Shown one piece after another: positions 28,667-33,791 of a DNA stretch of 64,000 bases (the stretch's first letter is position 1; each line of letters begins with the position of its first letter). The translations under genes and the position numbers were made by a program. The DNA is from a virus. The notes beneath the pieces are model-generated. The model saw nothing but the letters and a program-made list of their open reading frames with translations. It did no database searches and had not been told where the DNA came from. The stretch covers positions 1 to 64,000 of IMG/VR virus record IMGVR_UViG_3300031669_000014; one strand, written 5' to 3'.

Positions 28667-29073
28667 GCCTCCCTAACGCTGATTTCCACCCTTGGCGTCT
28701 CACCATACCATTTACAGGCAACTAGATTGACAACTAACGAATCATCCCGCCAGATAACGCCTTTCAGCGCGTCCTTGACGCCCTTAACGATGTTGTCAAT
28801 ATCCGGCTTTGTCGTGGGCCTAATTTCCCCGATCATGGCCTGGTCCGCCTTCTTTTTACTCATCGATTTCGGGATGGACCGGTAAGCCTTAATTGTGACC
28901 GAAAGTGGCATATCCAAAGGCTTTTCCGGGCGGACCTCCAGGGCTGCGGCCAACACGCGGCTTTTGTAATCCTTGGATTCCGCTGGGTCATAAGTTTTAA
29001 CAAAGTTACCCATTCTGGCAAATCTTGGCCGTCCTTGCGCGACAGGTTCCCCGAAAACAGTGAATTGTATCAC
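28663..29073 (-). CDS. rusA: RusA-family Holliday junction resolvase
   Basis: GEPVAQGRPR, KPDIDNIVKGVKDALKGVIWRDD. Confidence 0.9.
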   Translation of the reverse strand: MIQFTVFGEPVAQGRPRFARMGNFVKTYDPAESKDYKSRVLAAALEVRPEKPLDMPLSVTIKAYRSIPKSMSKKKADQAMIGEIRPTTKPDIDNIVKGVKDALKGVIWRDDSLVVNLVACKWYGETPRVEISVREA

Positions 29074-29075
29074 CT

Positions 29076-29369
29076 CTATCCCTCCCCCGGCGTATCGTTT
29101 AAATACCTTACCCAGCAGTCAAAACAGTTGTCGGTAGTATTGCAAAGCGCCTTTGGATATGGGCAACATTGGCAACCTCTTGGCGCAAGCAGATTGGCGA
29201 TCCGCTCACGCTCGGCTTTCGCGCCCTCGATATATGTCTGCTTAATTATTACTTTGATAAGCCTGTCAGGTTCCCACTCGCTTAACTCTTTATGGCATAG
29301 TTTCAATTCTAAGCCTCCCTTTTTCCTAGCAGGTAACTTTATCTTACCTAACGGGTTAACTAGCCGCAA
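29076..29369 (-). CDS. Cys-rich hypothetical protein
   Basis: CQCCP...C...CFDCW. Confidence 0.5.
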   Translation of the reverse strand: MRLVNPLGKIKLPARKKGGLELKLCHKELSEWEPDRLIKVIIKQTYIEGAKAERERIANLLAPRGCQCCPYPKALCNTTDNCFDCWVRYLNDTPGEG

Positions 29370-29505
29370 CGGGCATCCTGTGGCCTCCTACGGGCATCCT
29401 TGCGCTTCGGATGCAGTCTCCTATGTAGCCCTCCATCGGGATACTCACCCAAAGCACACTTCCAGCAAAACAGATCCCCGGTTCTAGCCGGGTGCTTGCG
29501 GCAAA

Positions 29506-29817
29506 TCAGACAGAACATCCAAACCATCCTCCTTCGCGGTCGCTGATCTTATTCTGCCGCCTCTGATCCATCACCAGCAGGCTGACCTCATCCTCATCCC
29601 TGCGAAGGTGCGCCGCTATTCCCGGGCCTGGCGTACCCGATTTCCAAAGTTCTCTAAAATCCCGTATCTGCACCGGCGTCCAGCAAAAGTCGATATCTTC
29701 CAGGATAATCACCGTTTCACCCTGGGGTGCTACGGCTCCCACGGGACGACCTACCTTGCCGGTGTATGGCTTAGTTGTGGGGATGTTGTGTTTGTGTAAC
29801 GTGCGATGGGATTGCAT
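29506..29817 (-). CDS. Phage HTH protein
   Basis: LEDIDFCW...LWKSG...IAAHLRRDEDEV. Confidence 0.6.
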   Translation of the reverse strand: MQSHRTLHKHNIPTTKPYTGKVGRPVGAVAPQGETVIILEDIDFCWTPVQIRDFRELWKSGTPGPGIAAHLRRDEDEVSLLVMDQRRQNKISDREGGWFGCSV

Positions 29818-32575
29818 TGGTGGTCACCTCCGGGAAATGTTTCTGCGATACTCTAATGCAAAACAACTCAATCTCACTCGCCCACAGAGTTTTTATTCCT
29901 GCTCGTTGACCAGCCAGCGGGAAGCCGGCCAGCCCATCAAATAAACTGCCAAGCGTTTTCAGCCCCAGAACTTCGGTTATCCTCCGCATTATCCACTCGA
30001 CACATGGTATCGCCAACCCGTTTCCGATTGCTTTATACTTTGCTGTATCCGATGCCCCAGGGATGTTAGTCCATCCGTCTGGAAGTCCCTGGAGGCGTTC
30101 TGCCTCAAGGGGAGTTAATCTACGGACTGCATAACCGGTAAATACTGGTTTACTTTGACCATCATCGGATCTCCGTACTTCTTGAACCTCTGATAATGCT
30201 TGTCGCAAAATCCGTATCCCTTTACTAGCTTCCCGCATATTAAGCAAAATTTCTTCTGACTGTGCTTTAAGTTGTGGCAACTCCGGCAAAGTCTCTCTAA
30301 ATTCTCCGGTTCGTTGTTTGTCCAATCCTCGTCCTTGTGGTGAACATCCAGCGCATTCGGCTTGCCACACTCCGAACAGGGACCGGGGGGAATCAATTTC
30401 TGCGATCTGCCGTGGTTTGTCCTCCAGTTGTCCGTTTCTATCTTCGGCTTGTTTCTGAACCCTTCGGCCATACAATTTTGATTGCAATACTTCCTCTTGT
30501 TGAAGTGAAGCAAGGATTCCATGTCCCCATTTGGAAAACGCTTCCTCTCCAATTTCTTTCCGCAGTGCTCGCAATATCTCAATGGTGTTTCTTTCATCGG
30601 CATTACCATCAATTTCACTCCCTTTTGGTTCAATAACAATATTGTCAGTGTCGCCCCGATGTGACATATTTGCCTTGGCTAAAAGCGTGTTGGCCGGGGC
30701 AGGATAAGCCACCGCTTGTCCTCCAGCCAAATCAAGAGTATAAGCAACTTCTTCGCATATCCCTAACCCATTCGATCCGGTCTGGTCAGTCTTGCATACA
30801 TAGGTTGGTTGAGCAACAAACGTCTGCTGTTTCATCCCCGGTTCTGCCGCCAATGCCCCGGCTTTACCTTTTAAATCTCTTACCTCGTCGCGCTGGTTTT
30901 GGGCAAAGACTATAGGTTCCACAACATACGTCGTACTACTTGGCTTATCTGCCTTGCTTGCCTGTGACCGCAGGGTGTGGGTTATTTCATGTTGGCCACC
31001 AGGACCGTAAGCCACAGGTATCAATGTTTCCGTCTCCGGGTCATATCGCCGACCGGTCCCGGTCGTTACGCACTGGGCAACGGCGTGAGCAGCACCCCGG
31101 CTATCAAGCGTAAACATCTTGCCATCATCCCTAAAACCCGGCCCTTGCGCCCCAGCTTCGTCCTTGCGCCCAATAATGCTGTGTTGAATAGCTATACACT
31201 GCGTCGCTCGATCAGTGTCCAAAGCACCTATTACGGGTCCGTTTACGTGGTCTTGGCGACCGTTAAAGGCGATTGGCAGCAGATACAATCCTGTTTTTGC
31301 CCCGCCTCCACCACCACCAGCTTTCAAAGTTACGCTTTTCCTGGCATTTATTGTTATACGGTCTGATGTTTGGTCAAGGTTGACTGTTGTTTCAACGCCA
31401 TCTCCAACACAGGCGGCAACTTCTTCCCTCGCTTTTCGGCCCTCCGGAGAATCCCCTGACAGGCTTTGCTCGACAAAAAGTATTTCTCCGGCACATTCGC
31501 CTCCAAAATGTCGCTCAAGTTGCTCTGTACAGTTGGATGCTCTATCGAGATAATCATTCCAACGCTGAACCCATTCCAGTTCTGTAAACAAGTTGCTGCT
31601 TGACTGTCTCGCATAGTTCATACACTCCTTTGTCACGGTTAAAAGTAACGATTCCGAGTTGTAGAAGTCCTGGTAAGAGTTGCTCAACTGAACGATGAGC
31701 TCTGCCATGCTCAGACCTAGAAGTGAACAGGTGTAAATTGTCAATTGTGTCGTGTTGCTTATCAGTGTCGATGTGGTGGACGAGTTCGCCAGGCTGTAGG
31801 CTTCTTCCCAAATGTTCTTCCATAACTTCAATATGTCTGAATATCTCTTTTCGTTTGCCGTTCTTGTCTGGTGGTCTTCTAATTGCATATCCCTTTGTAA
31901 ATCTATAATCAACGTGCCTAAATGGGACTCCAAGCTTTTGTGCTCTATCAGAAGTATCGTTAATGTCTCTGCCAAGTTCTCCAGCAATATCAACCAGTTT
32001 TCTTCCGTTTTTATTCCGAATAACCTCATCCTCCGCAGTAGTCCATCTTTTGCATCTTTTTTTAGGGGATAGTCCGATTTTAACAGCTCGATGCCTGACG
32101 CTCGTAATTGTTCTACCAAGACGTATTGCAATATCTCGATGATTAGTTGAGTAATAATGCTCACGGATATAATCGTCTTGTTCTGGAGTATATAATTTAC
32201 GCTTACCCATACTGCAAAAATCCTCCTTCTGCGCTGCGGAACCCCCATATTCTGAGCATCCAAAACAGTCATATCAACTACAAAACCAAGTTCCTCCATG
32301 GAATCCAATACCGACTCAATATCTTTACTGCCATTACTCGAAAATGCCCCTGGAACATTTTCCCATATGCAAACTTTTGGGTATTCTCCGTTGGTGGCTG
32401 ATTGCATTTCATGGATTATCCTCACCGCCTCGTTAAAAAGTCCTGACCTTGCACCTTCCAGACCAGCACGTTTACCGGCCACACTCAAGTCCTGGCAGGG
32501 TGAGCCGAAGGTTATTATGTCAACGGGGGCTATTCTGCCGCCGTGGATGTCGGTTACACTGCCAAGGTGCTTCAA
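29771..32575 (-). CDS. dcm: C5-cytosine DNA methyltransferase, circularly permuted, multi-TRD, with two HNH-coding insertions
   Basis: GSPCQD (IV), WENV (VI), QRRRRIF (VIII), RRLTPLEAERLQG (IX), KAIGN (X), then SLFDGLAG (I) and ASEIE (II) at C-terminus. Confidence 0.85.
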   Translation of the reverse strand: MKHLGSVTDIHGGRIAPVDIITFGSPCQDLSVAGKRAGLEGARSGLFNEAVRIIHEMQSATNGEYPKVCIWENVPGAFSSNGSKDIESVLDSMEELGFVVDMTVLDAQNMGVPQRRRRIFAVWVSVNYILQNKTIISVSIITQLIIEILQYVLVEQLRASGIELLKSDYPLKKDAKDGLLRRMRLFGIKTEENWLILLENLAETLTILLIEHKSLESHLGTLIIDLQRDMQLEDHQTRTANEKRYSDILKLWKNIWEEAYSLANSSTTSTLISNTTQLTIYTCSLLGLSMAELIVQLSNSYQDFYNSESLLLTVTKECMNYARQSSSNLFTELEWVQRWNDYLDRASNCTEQLERHFGGECAGEILFVEQSLSGDSPEGRKAREEVAACVGDGVETTVNLDQTSDRITINARKSVTLKAGGGGGGAKTGLYLLPIAFNGRQDHVNGPVIGALDTDRATQCIAIQHSIIGRKDEAGAQGPGFRDDGKMFTLDSRGAAHAVAQCVTTGTGRRYDPETETLIPVAYGPGGQHEITHTLRSQASKADKPSSTTYVVEPIVFAQNQRDEVRDLKGKAGALAAEPGMKQQTFVAQPTYVCKTDQTGSNGLGICEEVAYTLDLAGGQAVAYPAPANTLLAKANMSHRGDTDNIVIEPKGSEIDGNADERNTIEILRALRKEIGEEAFSKWGHGILASLQQEEVLQSKLYGRRVQKQAEDRNGQLEDKPRQIAEIDSPRSLFGVWQAECAGCSPQGRGLDKQRTGEFRETLPELPQLKAQSEEILLNMREASKGIRILRQALSEVQEVRRSDDGQSKPVFTGYAVRRLTPLEAERLQGLPDGWTNIPGASDTAKYKAIGNGLAIPCVEWIMRRITEVLGLKTLGSLFDGLAGFPLAGQRAGIKTLWASEIELFCIRVSQKHFPEVTTNAIPSHVTQTQHPHN
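30115..30609 (-). CDS. HNH endonuclease nested in MTase (+1 frame)
   Basis: CSECG...DVHHKDEDWTNNEPENLERLCRSCH; Zn fingers; GGGAG RBS before ATG 30609 (track start 30639). Confidence 0.85.
   Translation of the reverse strand: MVMPMKETPLRYCEHCGKKLERKRFPNGDMESLLHFNKRKYCNQNCMAEGFRNKPKIETDNWRTNHGRSQKLIPPGPCSECGKPNALDVHHKDEDWTNNEPENLERLCRSCHNLKHSQKKFCLICGKLVKGYGFCDKHYQRFKKYGDPMMVKVNQYLPVMQSVD
31354..31614 (-). CDS. Small MTase-associated ORF nested in +1 frame (M.EcoHK31I beta-like arrangement)
   Basis: LSDILEANVPEKYFLSSKACQGILRRAEKRGKKLP; AAGGAG RBS. Confidence 0.7.
   Translation of the reverse strand: MRDSQAATCLQNWNGFSVGMIISIEHPTVQSNLSDILEANVPEKYFLSSKACQGILRRAEKRGKKLPPVLEMALKQQSTLTKHQTV
31554..32210 (-). 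CDS. HNH_3-type endonuclease with Myb-like repeats nested in MTase (-1 frame)
   Basis: YTPEQDDYIR / WTTAEDEVIR; RHIEVMEEHLGR.L..ELVHHID..K....NL...EHGRAH; AGGAGG RBS. Confidence 0.85.
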   Translation of the reverse strand: MGKRKLYTPEQDDYIREHYYSTNHRDIAIRLGRTITSVRHRAVKIGLSPKKRCKRWTTAEDEVIRNKNGRKLVDIAGELGRDINDTSDRAQKLGVPFRHVDYRFTKGYAIRRPPDKNGKRKEIFRHIEVMEEHLGRSLQPGELVHHIDTDKQHDTIDNLHLFTSRSEHGRAHRSVEQLLPGLLQLGIVTFNRDKGVYELCETVKQQLVYRTGMGSALE

Positions 32576-32590
32576 CGGTGATCACCTCGC

Positions 32591-33028
32591 CTAAAAGTTA
32601 ACATCAATCTTTTCCCCTTGCAGGATCCGCCGGTCTGTCTGCGTCGCCCAGCTCGGGGCCATCGGCCAGCCGTTTAATCTGTCGCCTGCCTTACACGGGC
32701 ACCGGCAGTAGCGATCTTCCCCTTCCTGTAAAACTGTGATATAACCCCCGCCGCCACAAACGGAGCAACCCGTTTTTTTTAGTGGCTGAAAGGCTGTATT
32801 GCGCTGATCGTCCTTAATACTTTGTATTGCGCCCTGGATATCTGCAACCGTGGGGAAGAATTTTGCCGTGGCCAGCACCTTTTTAAGCGCTTCTTTAACC
32901 TGCGGATAAGGTAATTCCCCTAACATTTCTTCCCAAGTCATCCCAATTTGTACAAGTTCTTTATTCTGGATACTTGGGAAACTTCCATAAGCTAGAGTTA
33001 TTAAACTTTTAATCTCCTGTTTATTCAC
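32591..33028 (-). CDS. Helicase loader/inhibitor (G39P-like) with Zn motif
   Basis: W..ML.ELPY..V..AL...KFFPTVADI; CSVCGGGG...CRCPC; follows initiator. Confidence 0.7.
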   Translation of the reverse strand: MNKQEIKSLITLAYGSFPSIQNKELVQIGMTWEEMLGELPYPQVKEALKKVLATAKFFPTVADIQGAIQSIKDDQRNTAFQPLKKTGCSVCGGGGYITVLQEGEDRYCRCPCKAGDRLNGWPMAPSWATQTDRRILQGEKIDVNF

Positions 33029-33791
33029 TGTTCGCCCACTCCTCTAAAGCCTGTCTTCCGGTTGACCAACCTTCCTGGCTTTGTCCGCCCTCATGGTATT
33101 CATCCTCCCAACCTTTAGCATTTAGCCAGGTTGCCGGATGGGGAATCCATTTCCCATTTTCCTTTGTCCACCCCGCCGAAGTCTTGGCCCGCTTTAACGC
33201 ATCAAGAATGACTGCTAGAAGCTGTTCGTCCGGTTTGATTTTATTCCATGCTTTTTCAGCCTGGCCCTTAGACTTTTTATTTGGATATGATTGCCAAAAT
33301 TCGTCAAACATTTCTTGATGATTTATTTTTTCTTGCGCAAGTATTTTAAGATCTTTATTCTTTACATTCTTTACATTCTTTACATTCTTGTTTGTGTTCA
33401 TTTGTTGTTCATTTGCTGTTCGTTTGTTGTTCATTTGTTGTTCATTTTGTTGTTCAGGTTGGTCCCCTTCCCCCTGATAAAAAGCCCAATTCTCAATGGT
33501 TACAATAGAAAATTTGTTGTTCGGCTGGATGACCAATCTTTCACTCGATTCTAATTTTTTTACGTAACGATACAGTGACGAGGGATGTAGCTTTAATTCT
33601 GCCGCAGCCTTGTCTCTGCCGAAGACAAATTGCCCTGGTTTTAGGATAACTTTTTGAAGTCCAACAAGTTGCTCATGCTCTTTATGACTGGCTTTAAGTA
33701 AACACCACACCCAAACTTTAAGGAGGTTCTCATTGTCAAATAACGGGTTGTCTAATAAACACCGGTGAAGCTTGATGTAGCCGCTTGCCAT
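33021..33791 (-). CDS. Phage replication initiator (replisome organiser)
   Basis: GYIKLHR, FDEFWQSYPNK, IPHPATWLN; internal iterons. Confidence 0.88.
   Translation of the reverse strand: MASGYIKLHRCLLDNPLFDNENLLKVWVWCLLKASHKEHEQLVGLQKVILKPGQFVFGRDKAAAELKLHPSSLYRYVKKLESSERLVIQPNNKFSIVTIENWAFYQGEGDQPEQQNEQQMNNKRTANEQQMNTNKNVKNVKNVKNKDLKILAQEKINHQEMFDEFWQSYPNKKSKGQAEKAWNKIKPDEQLLAVILDALKRAKTSAGWTKENGKWIPHPATWLNAKGWEDEYHEGGQSQEGWSTGRQALEEWANSE
33361..33456. repeat. Lytic origin iterons inside initiator gene
   Basis: TTTACATTC x3 (33361-33387); TTTGYTGTTCR x5 at ~11-bp period (33401-33456). Confidence 0.75.

Follow-up and report, generated by a model that had tools for sequence, protein, structure and literature searches.

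How can two nuclease genes lie inside the coding sequence of a third gene, out of frame with it and on the same strand, while the reading frame of that third gene stays open across both of them? The question is raised by a C5-cytosine DNA methyltransferase (MTase) gene of a virus from the IMG/VR record IMGVR_UViG_3300031669_000014, of which positions 1 to 64,000 were analysed (64,000 nucleotides, hereafter the window). Homing endonuclease genes (HEGs) have been thought to survive in essential or useful genes only inside introns or inteins. Phage group I introns often carry HNH genes, and free-standing HEGs that split genes are represented by the T4 mobA/gene 60 bypass cassette and by mobE, which splits the nrdA gene of Aeh1. 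The MTase gene of the window holds two HNH genes, here called HNH-1 and HNH-2, and the original prediction for this locus proposed a homing strategy that spares the host gene by overprinting, the extra peptide being tolerated, cleaved or bypassed.

The comparative analysis reported here argues that the target-recognition domain (TRD) of this phage MTase has on each side a homing-endonuclease insertion that is splice-free and stop-purged, a reading to which we assign a probability of roughly 0.78. The proposal of homing by overprinting is supported: each of the computational tests speaks for a splice-free, stop-purged insertion with read-through and against an intron or intein. The options of a cleaved or bypassed peptide are unsupported.

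Anatomy of the two nested HNH elements

Each HNH gene lies wholly within the 934-codon MTase open reading frame (ORF), sharing its strand and in another frame, as had been proposed; the coordinates and the Pfam matches agree (Table 1). Both being inside the MTase ORF, neither HNH-1 nor HNH-2 is a free-standing (intergenic) HEG. Across HNH-1 the MTase frame contains 0 stops and the third frame 27; across HNH-2 the corresponding numbers are 0 and 13. The odds of such open frames under uniform codons, originally put at about 3e-5 and 4e-4, are arithmetically right. A more conservative null, in which synonymous codons were shuffled within each HNH ORF, gave a stop-free MTase frame in 0 of 2000 shuffles for each insert of the window (expected stops, 5.5 and 9.4).

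The two nucleases have different domain compositions. HNH-1 consists of two N-terminal helix-turn-helix-like repeats followed by an HNH core (VHHID..NL.L..H), and HNH-2 of a Zn-ribbon, an HNH core (VHHKDEDW.NN..NL..C.SCH) and a second Zn-ribbon; the catalytic and Zn-binding residues are invariant in the alignments of both families. The inserts flank the TRD, with HNH-1 after motif VIII and HNH-2 before motif IX, and their junctions with the host motifs are as tight as first described. The ATG of HNH-1 spans codons V122/W123 (GTA TGG), directly after QRRRRIFAV, and after its TGA stop another 43 nt pass until the MTase sequence continues, at 31510, with HFGGEC. At the other site, the HNH-2 ORF extends ~20 nt into motif IX and ends there on a TAA formed by the Leu-Thr codons within AGA TTA ACT, the R-L-T codons of the motif; in 66/125 loci the first nucleotide of the HNH-2 stop, be it TAA or TGA, is nt +7 of the motif IX sequence R-R-L-T-P, so that Leu and Thr codons again supply it. 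An alternative HNH-2 start, the TTG at 30639, would give a product of 174 aa. The sequence outside the HNH ORF amounts to ~43 nt in insert 1 and ~20 nt in insert 2. Read in the MTase frame, the filler encoded by insert 2 runs ..ILRALRKEIGEEAFSKWG..CSPQ..ELPQL..ILRQAL..

The nested genes have translation signals of their own. The claim that the AGG AGG of the motif VIII Arg codons doubles as the ribosome-binding site of HNH-1 gains weight from a comparison of alleles: in occupied alleles these codons are AGA/AGG-rich in 9/9 examined, high-GC phages included, and a Shine-Dalgarno (SD)-like AGGAGG or similar motif lies 11-14 nt before the HNH-1 ATG, whereas empty alleles have mostly CGN codons. 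The motif VIII Arg codons read CGA CGT CGT CGA in phage Omega (empty) and CGT AGG AGG CGA in phage Schatzie (occupied). The codon choice suggests that the upstream exon was co-converted together with the HNH-1 element. For HNH-2, an SD-like motif was present upstream of the start in 8/8 lineages inspected. A promoter/terminator scan for internal promoters picked up 7 promoter-like sites where 4.1 +/- 1.9 were expected, a number that is not informative.

The host frame is open across relatives

Relatives were retrieved with the HNH proteins alone, which kept the state of the MTase frame from influencing the search. For HNH-1 this yielded 11 nested lineages: 8 IMG/VR or metagenome-assembled genome (MAG) loci, the cluster J mycobacteriophages, L130 and L132. 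The MTase frame is stop-free in 11/11. The 8 IMG/VR or MAG loci, which include a Planctomycetales and an Oscillospiraceae MAG, all lie in C5-MTase ORFs at the same frame offset (39-53% identity), with 0 stops in the MTase frame versus 7-24 in the third. In the cluster J mycobacteriophages Schatzie, KashFlow and Bombitas, HNH-1 is likewise nested in a C5 methylase whose frame is open.

Scans of metagenomes and IMG/VR with HNH-2 brought up 128 loci (81 non-redundant), 125 of them nested. The MTase frame is stop-free in 125/125 nested loci, while the other (third) frame is open in 0/128 and holds 5 stops on average. The other 3 of the 128 have 8-14 stops; the HNH gene in these is either free-standing or broken. 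Free-standing HNH relatives do exist (L007, L097 and L198), and in L007, a free-standing HNH-1 relative of 27% identity, the corresponding frames hold 19 and 30 stops. A nested copy with a decayed (stop-containing) MTase frame, the case that the original prediction had named as speaking against overprinting, was sought among the 11 HNH-1 lineages and the 125 HNH-2 loci, and none was found. With the synonymous-shuffle null applied to each instance among the relatives, P(0 stops) was <=0.03 and mostly <0.001. The stop pattern is all or none, and the stop-free host frame is under selection and not a product of chance. In both families the frame offset and the site of insertion are fixed.

An exhaustive HMMER search with the insert-1 filler peptide returned 176 clusters at 50% identity, nearly all of them MTases of 500-1143 aa that span the entire insert. 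Alignment with insertion-free homologs, as had been suggested, finds insert 1 absent in homolog P0007 and in phage Omega, and insert 2 absent in homologs P0002, P0006, P0008 and P0012.

Double occupancy is found beyond the window. Homologs P0003 and P0004 also have two elements in one MTase. In L155 / L132 (IMGVR_UViG_3300000036_000024), a doubly occupied MTase with an open 997-aa ORF, an HNH-1-like gene lies at nt 609-1424 (frame +2) and an HNH-2 gene at nt 2501-2974. Contig Ga0209318_1000051 (L048, L049) carries two HNH-2 copies ~72 kb apart, each 70% identical to the HNH-2 of the window.

Introns, inteins and removal of the filler

Could the inserts be self-splicing introns (group I or II, or of an undescribed class) with HNH ORFs, the open MTase frame being incidental? 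HNH genes are common passengers of phage group I introns, and the GenBank note on phage Schatzie reads 'unable to determine intron boundaries'. However, no Rfam match was obtained at E<=1 over 29000-33500. There is also no room for a separate ribozyme: only the ~43 nt or ~20 nt given above lie outside the ORFs, and the HNH-2 ORF ends within motif IX, where an intron model would place exon. Nor would an intron account for the purging of stops, yet all nested relatives of both families are stop-free in the MTase frame. We regard the intron explanation as highly improbable.

It could also be supposed that the fillers are translated and then removed from the MTase by an unrecognised self-excising (intein-like) activity or by proteolysis. 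Such a route would need the stop-free frame too, and the homologous MTases P0039 and P0074 hold true inteins (Hint_2, with LAGLIDADG/Hom_end domains); classical as well as splice-free selfish elements are thus found in this family of MTase genes. In the 934-aa protein, though, Pfam finds PF00145 only and no Hint domain, consistent with the original statement that no intein motifs are visible in the MTase frame. The residues that follow the inserts are H and G, with no Cys/Ser/Thr there and no conserved His-Asn at the insert ends, and the poor conservation of the filler fits badly with a catalytic fold. Removal of the filler is accordingly rated as improbable. A Cys at the start of insert 1 in relatives was considered as an intein-like feature and rejected: the first codon is forced to C or W by the HNH ATG (xxA TGx), and is Trp in the window.

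Constraint on the nuclease and nature of the filler

Identity was compared frame by frame in 36 HNH-1 pairs and 28 HNH-2 pairs. For HNH-1 it was 0.46 in the HNH frame, 0.28 in the MTase frame (shuffle null, 0.20) and 0.26 in the third frame (0.20); for HNH-2 it was 0.52, 0.32 (0.25) and 0.31 (0.26), respectively. The constraint on the HNH frame is dominant and the nuclease is the constrained product. Because MTase-frame identity barely exceeds third-frame identity, the filler is constrained mainly against stops. Purifying selection on the filler peptide itself was considered as well; with its marginal excess over the third frame, a functional domain is not claimed.

In the AlphaFold2 (AF2) model, the insert-1 filler is an all-helical bundle with a predicted local distance difference test (pLDDT) score of 45-90, and the insert-2 filler is partly helical. 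The fillers, insert 1 at least, might hence be viewed as exapted, real structural domains of the MTase on which selection acts beyond keeping out stops; this would be compatible with insertion of selfish elements. The pLDDT of up to 85-90 for residues 240-355 of the bundle speaks for such exaptation, as does an MTase-frame identity above the shuffle null by z ~3. The third, non-coding frame exceeds the null almost equally (z 2.4), insert-free MTases are common, and the alignment used for the fold carries over covariation that stems from the HNH frame. On balance, exaptation appears unlikely.

Mobility of the elements

The presence of the elements is patchy among close relatives. The Omegavirus / cluster J phages are polymorphic, Omega being empty and Schatzie, KashFlow and others occupied; their alleles are near-identical in sequence downstream of the site and diverged upstream of it. 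In 14/15 pairs, the similarity between the HNH-2 proteins exceeds that between the catalytic (motif IV-VIII) cores of the MTases around them, and HNH-2 proteins of 54-70% identity are found in MTases whose variable regions are unrelated and which belong to very different subfamilies. This disparity points to a movement of HNH-2 between divergent MTase genes.

The same data bear on the possibility that the HNH proteins are domesticated partners of the MTase, forming with it a compact restriction-modification/addiction pair or serving as a DNA-binding module, with nesting to ensure co-inheritance. A nuclease joined to a methylase does follow restriction-modification logic, and reuse as a module was raised as a possibility by the authors who described the ShiLan domain (see below). 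A domesticated partner is nevertheless hard to reconcile with closely similar HNH-2 proteins in such unlike MTases and with presence or absence that varies among close relatives; in addition, the elements directly abut the most conserved motifs, which is where homing targets would be expected. Domestication is considered very unlikely.

Proposed mechanism and points that weigh against it

According to the preferred reading, that of splice-free, stop-purged homing-endonuclease insertions, two unrelated selfish HNH genes would have inserted into the C5-MTase coding sequence at the borders of the TRD. Each would be translated from its own SD and ATG, HNH-1 in frame +2 and HNH-2 in frame +1 relative to the MTase. 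With the MTase frame purged of stops, ribosomes that start at the MTase TTG would read through both inserts and make one polypeptide, with fillers of ~233 and ~165 residues at the hinge, a position at which bisection and permutation are tolerated in C5-MTases. The presumed target of the nucleases is the highly conserved motif VIII or IX DNA of empty alleles, which they would cut or nick; repair from an occupied allele would then copy the element, the SD-bearing Arg codons of motif VIII included. From the sequences, we infer read-through translation, a still-active MTase and homing.

Several points weigh against this scheme. HNH-1 identity tracks host-core identity (r=0.84), and the history of HNH-1 may be largely vertical instead of reflecting active homing. 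The spacing between the SD of HNH-1 and its ATG, at 11-14 nt, is long. The nested instances are not phylogenetically independent. The helical bundle of the insert-1 filler is predicted at moderate confidence, and its departure from the shuffle null has a z of 3.1 in the MTase frame vs 2.4 in the third frame, so the insert-1 filler may be more than inert. Finally, Rfam covers described ribozymes only, and a splicing or processing step of an unknown kind would be compatible with the sequence.

A third reading frame in the host gene

The MTase gene contains a further overlapping frame, ORF-beta, which is in the +1 frame, conserved and widespread in the clade of this MTase, with the consensus LSDILE..KYFLSxKACxGILRRAEKRGKxLP. 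It begins 22 nt after the motif VIII Q codon and is present in 41/67 distinct loci. Where no insert is present, ORF-beta has a length of ~160 aa and shares DNA with motifs IV-VIII. ORF-beta matches ~1990 predicted proteins of 150-170 aa and PHROG 16143 (phrog_16143 'DNA methyltransferase', the sole PHROGs match); no Pfam family was found in it, and it has no recognisable MTase motif. Its depletion in stops in the shuffle test is modest, with P0 from 0.25 to 0.0065. A 73-nt stretch at 31414-31486 is ~80% identical to the GC-rich DNA of cluster J mycobacteriophages. It codes in two frames, as HFGGECAGEILF for the MTase and as LSDILE..KYFLS for ORF-beta, and this dual coding would account for the identity.

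ORF-beta is split by HNH-1. The leftover ORF of 80-126 aa starts with an ATG preceded by an SD-like motif in 9/11 occupied lineages, and in these both the ATG and the SD-like motif are within conserved C-terminal codons of HNH-1. Because the same arrangement holds in the window (Table 1), all three frames are predicted to be coding over 31554-31614. A comparable case is M.EcoHK31I alpha/beta (PMC2836561), a C5-MTase gene that, like the one of the window, has a second polypeptide in an alternative frame. The beta polypeptide of EcoHK31I carries motif IX, whereas in the window motif IX is still encoded in the main frame, and ORF-beta is without any recognisable MTase motif.

Tentatively, and at somewhat less than even odds, HNH-1 may be seen as a three-frame element that spares both the MTase and ORF-beta without splicing and provides a new SD and ATG for the 3' module of ORF-beta. 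Together with HNH-2, overprinting would then represent a general third way for HEGs to reside inside genes, besides introns and inteins.

The host enzyme is a circularly permuted C5-methyltransferase

The host MTase has the full set of C5-MTase motifs I, II, IV (PCQ), VI (ENV), VIII (QxRxR), IX and X in a permuted order: motifs III-IV-VI-VIII are followed by the TRD, by IX-X and then by I-II, and the N-terminus (MKHLGSVTDI) falls between motifs II and III. The segments of the Pfam PF00145 profile are accordingly matched along the protein in the order 45-168, 239-323, 4-50. By its motif order, the MTase is a circular permutant of natural origin whose topology corresponds to "Type B" in PMC5944983. 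It differs from the M.BssHII-type (Type H) enzymes, in which the N-terminus lies in the variable region and motifs IX-X precede I-VIII. The same Type B topology was found in at least 12 other homologs among the top 120 and in locus L001, most of them without inserts.

In the REBASE survey of Slaska-Kiss et al. 2018 (PMC5944983), the permutants were variable-region permutants only, with no natural Type B enzymes, and engineered Type B permutants, with the N-terminus between motifs II and III, had about wild-type activity. The fusion of motif X to motif I is common to the window MTase, the natural Type H enzymes (M.BssHII and others) and the engineered Type B enzymes cp62M.MpeI and cp58M.SssI. 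In contrast to the latter, the window MTase and at least 12 homologs are natural representatives of Type B.

In the AF2 model of the 934-aa protein, the catalytic core is confident, with a pLDDT of 72-95 for segment 1 and 78-82 for segment 3 (Table 1). The fold of segment 2 and the permuted C-terminal module are of low confidence, in the case of the module because few aligned sequences cover it. When the insert-free permutant P0079 was modelled, the relocated module was predicted to be beta-alpha-beta-alpha with a pLDDT of 62-85.

Some relatives depart from the host gene of the window in other ways. Homolog P0006 has a CxxC..CxxC Zn-ribbon-like extra segment of 26 aa directly after motif IV (alignment columns 94-120), and the N-terminus of L027 has an extra segment of ~25 aa between motifs III and IV. 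In phage Omega (NC_004688; L026), gp127/gp128 are two annotated methyltransferase coding sequences (CDSs) in the same frame with a single in-frame stop between them. In phage Schatzie (L025), the 3' part of the MTase is reached via a frame change.

Table 1. Features of the MTase locus in window coordinates; the last row gives ORF-beta in two relatives, in coordinates of those loci
Feature	Positions	Strand	Description
Host MTase ORF	29771..32575	(-)	934 codons; C5-cytosine DNA methyltransferase, circularly permuted; PF00145 match E 3e-46
MTase SD GAGGTGA	32582..32588	(-)	6 nt upstream of TTG start (32575)
MTase segment 1	32210..32575	(-)	Motifs III, IV (PCQ, 32500), VI (ENV, 32362), VIII (QRRRR, 32236)
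AGGAGG in motif VIII Arg codons	32222..32227	(-)	Likely HNH-1 SD, 11 nt before ATG
Insert 1 (HNH-1 element)	31511..32209	(-)	~699 nt; ~233 filler residues in MTase frame; boundaries good to a few nt
HNH-1 gene	31554..32210	(-)	218 aa; frame +2 relative to MTase; PF13392 E 9e-7
ORF-beta SD AAGGAG	31625-31630	(-)	Inside HNH-1 C-terminal codons, as is ATG 31614
ORF-beta, truncated +1-frame host ORF	31354..31614	(-)	86 aa, LSDILE..KYFLSSKACQGILRRAEKRGKKLP; ATG 31614
MTase segment 2	30632..31510	(-)	HFGGECAGEILFVE block and variable target-recognition region
Insert 2 (HNH-2 element)	30137..30631	(-)	~495 nt; ~165 filler residues in MTase frame
HNH-2 SD AAGGGAG	30618..30624	(-)	8 nt upstream of ATG (30609)
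HNH-2 gene	30115..30609	(-)	164 aa; frame +1 relative to MTase; PF01844 E 2e-5
MTase segment 3	29963..30136	(-)	Motif IX (YAVRRLTPLE) and motif X (GNGLAIP)
Permuted C-terminal module	29771..29962	(-)	Motifs I (LGSLFDGLAGF) and II (WASEIE), joined immediately behind motif X
ORF-beta in relatives	L026:2462-2938(-); L029:753-1295(+)		

Comparison with known systems

The principle of overprinting was already published in 2025 (PMC11855218), with the same reasoning as here. In the ShiLan domain, described by Gosselin et al. 2023 (PMC9957025) and by Arsenault, Gosselin and Gogarten 2025 (PMC11855218), a mycobacteriophage methylase carries an out-of-frame HNH gene hidden in an insertion free of stops. 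ShiLan and the elements of the window have in common an HNH gene in a shifted frame of a methylase CDS, a stop-free host frame, no intron or intein signature, a patchy, homing-like distribution and a filler predicted as a projecting helical hairpin or bundle. They differ in the host enzyme, which in ShiLan_65 is a DPPY/FAGSGTT amino-methyltransferase of the N6/N4 type (PMC9957025 supplement) and in the window a C5-MTase. They also differ in translation initiation: the ShiLan HNH gene has a GTG start and no visible ribosome-binding site, for which leaderless initiation was proposed, whereas the HNH genes of the window have clear SD sites. The published ShiLan set comprises ~10 mycobacteriophages; here, >130 loci from many environments and host groups are covered, and the window has two elements in one gene. 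In tblastn searches with HNH-1 and HNH-2, no ShiLan-type phage was among the matches listed at E<=1e-5, the ShiLan DNA itself not being compared directly.

Pacc40 gp60 (PMC11855218) is another case, a methylase whose frame stays open across an out-of-frame ORF that is nuclease-like and differs from that of ShiLan. The host is a helicase-methylase fusion and the assignment of the ORF as a nuclease is uncertain; a relation to HNH-1 or HNH-2 was not detected. New in the present work are the two nuclease families, the host enzyme class, the SD-driven starts, the stop borrowed from motif IX, the double occupancy and the three-frame overlap.

Intron- and intein-borne HEGs and gene-splitting HEGs likewise show a selfish nuclease that persists in or next to a conserved gene without destroying its function. 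Those HEGs rely on splicing of RNA or protein, on ribosomal bypass or on division of the product into two polypeptides, whereas in the window the host frame is kept open. Inteins with a homing endonuclease in frame 3 relative to the surrounding translated host/intein frame are similar, except that the nuclease gene lies inside a splicing intein; the inserts of the window are without a splicing domain.

Conclusions

The annotation of such genes varies between one long methylase, overlapping genes and undetermined introns, and their treatment in GenBank is inconsistent: gp113 of KashFlow is one long 'DNA methylase', the Schatzie entry carries the intron remark quoted above, and the entry for gp45 of Staphylococcus phage CUB-EPI_14 gives a plain methyltransferase although an HNH-2 is nested in it. 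Culturable systems are available in this Staphylococcus phage and in the cluster J mycobacteriophages, among which both occupied and empty alleles occur. The permissive sites that flank the TRD, together with the natural Type B permutation, are of interest for the engineering of split or fused C5-methyltransferases.

The splice-free alternative to introns and inteins, proposed in 2025 on the basis of about ten mycobacteriophage genes, is widespread and clearly selected; it extends to at least two further nuclease families and to a different methyltransferase class, and occurs in phages of many environments and host groups. If the three-frame reading of HNH-1 is true, one selfish nuclease would spare two overlapping host products at once, with no splicing.

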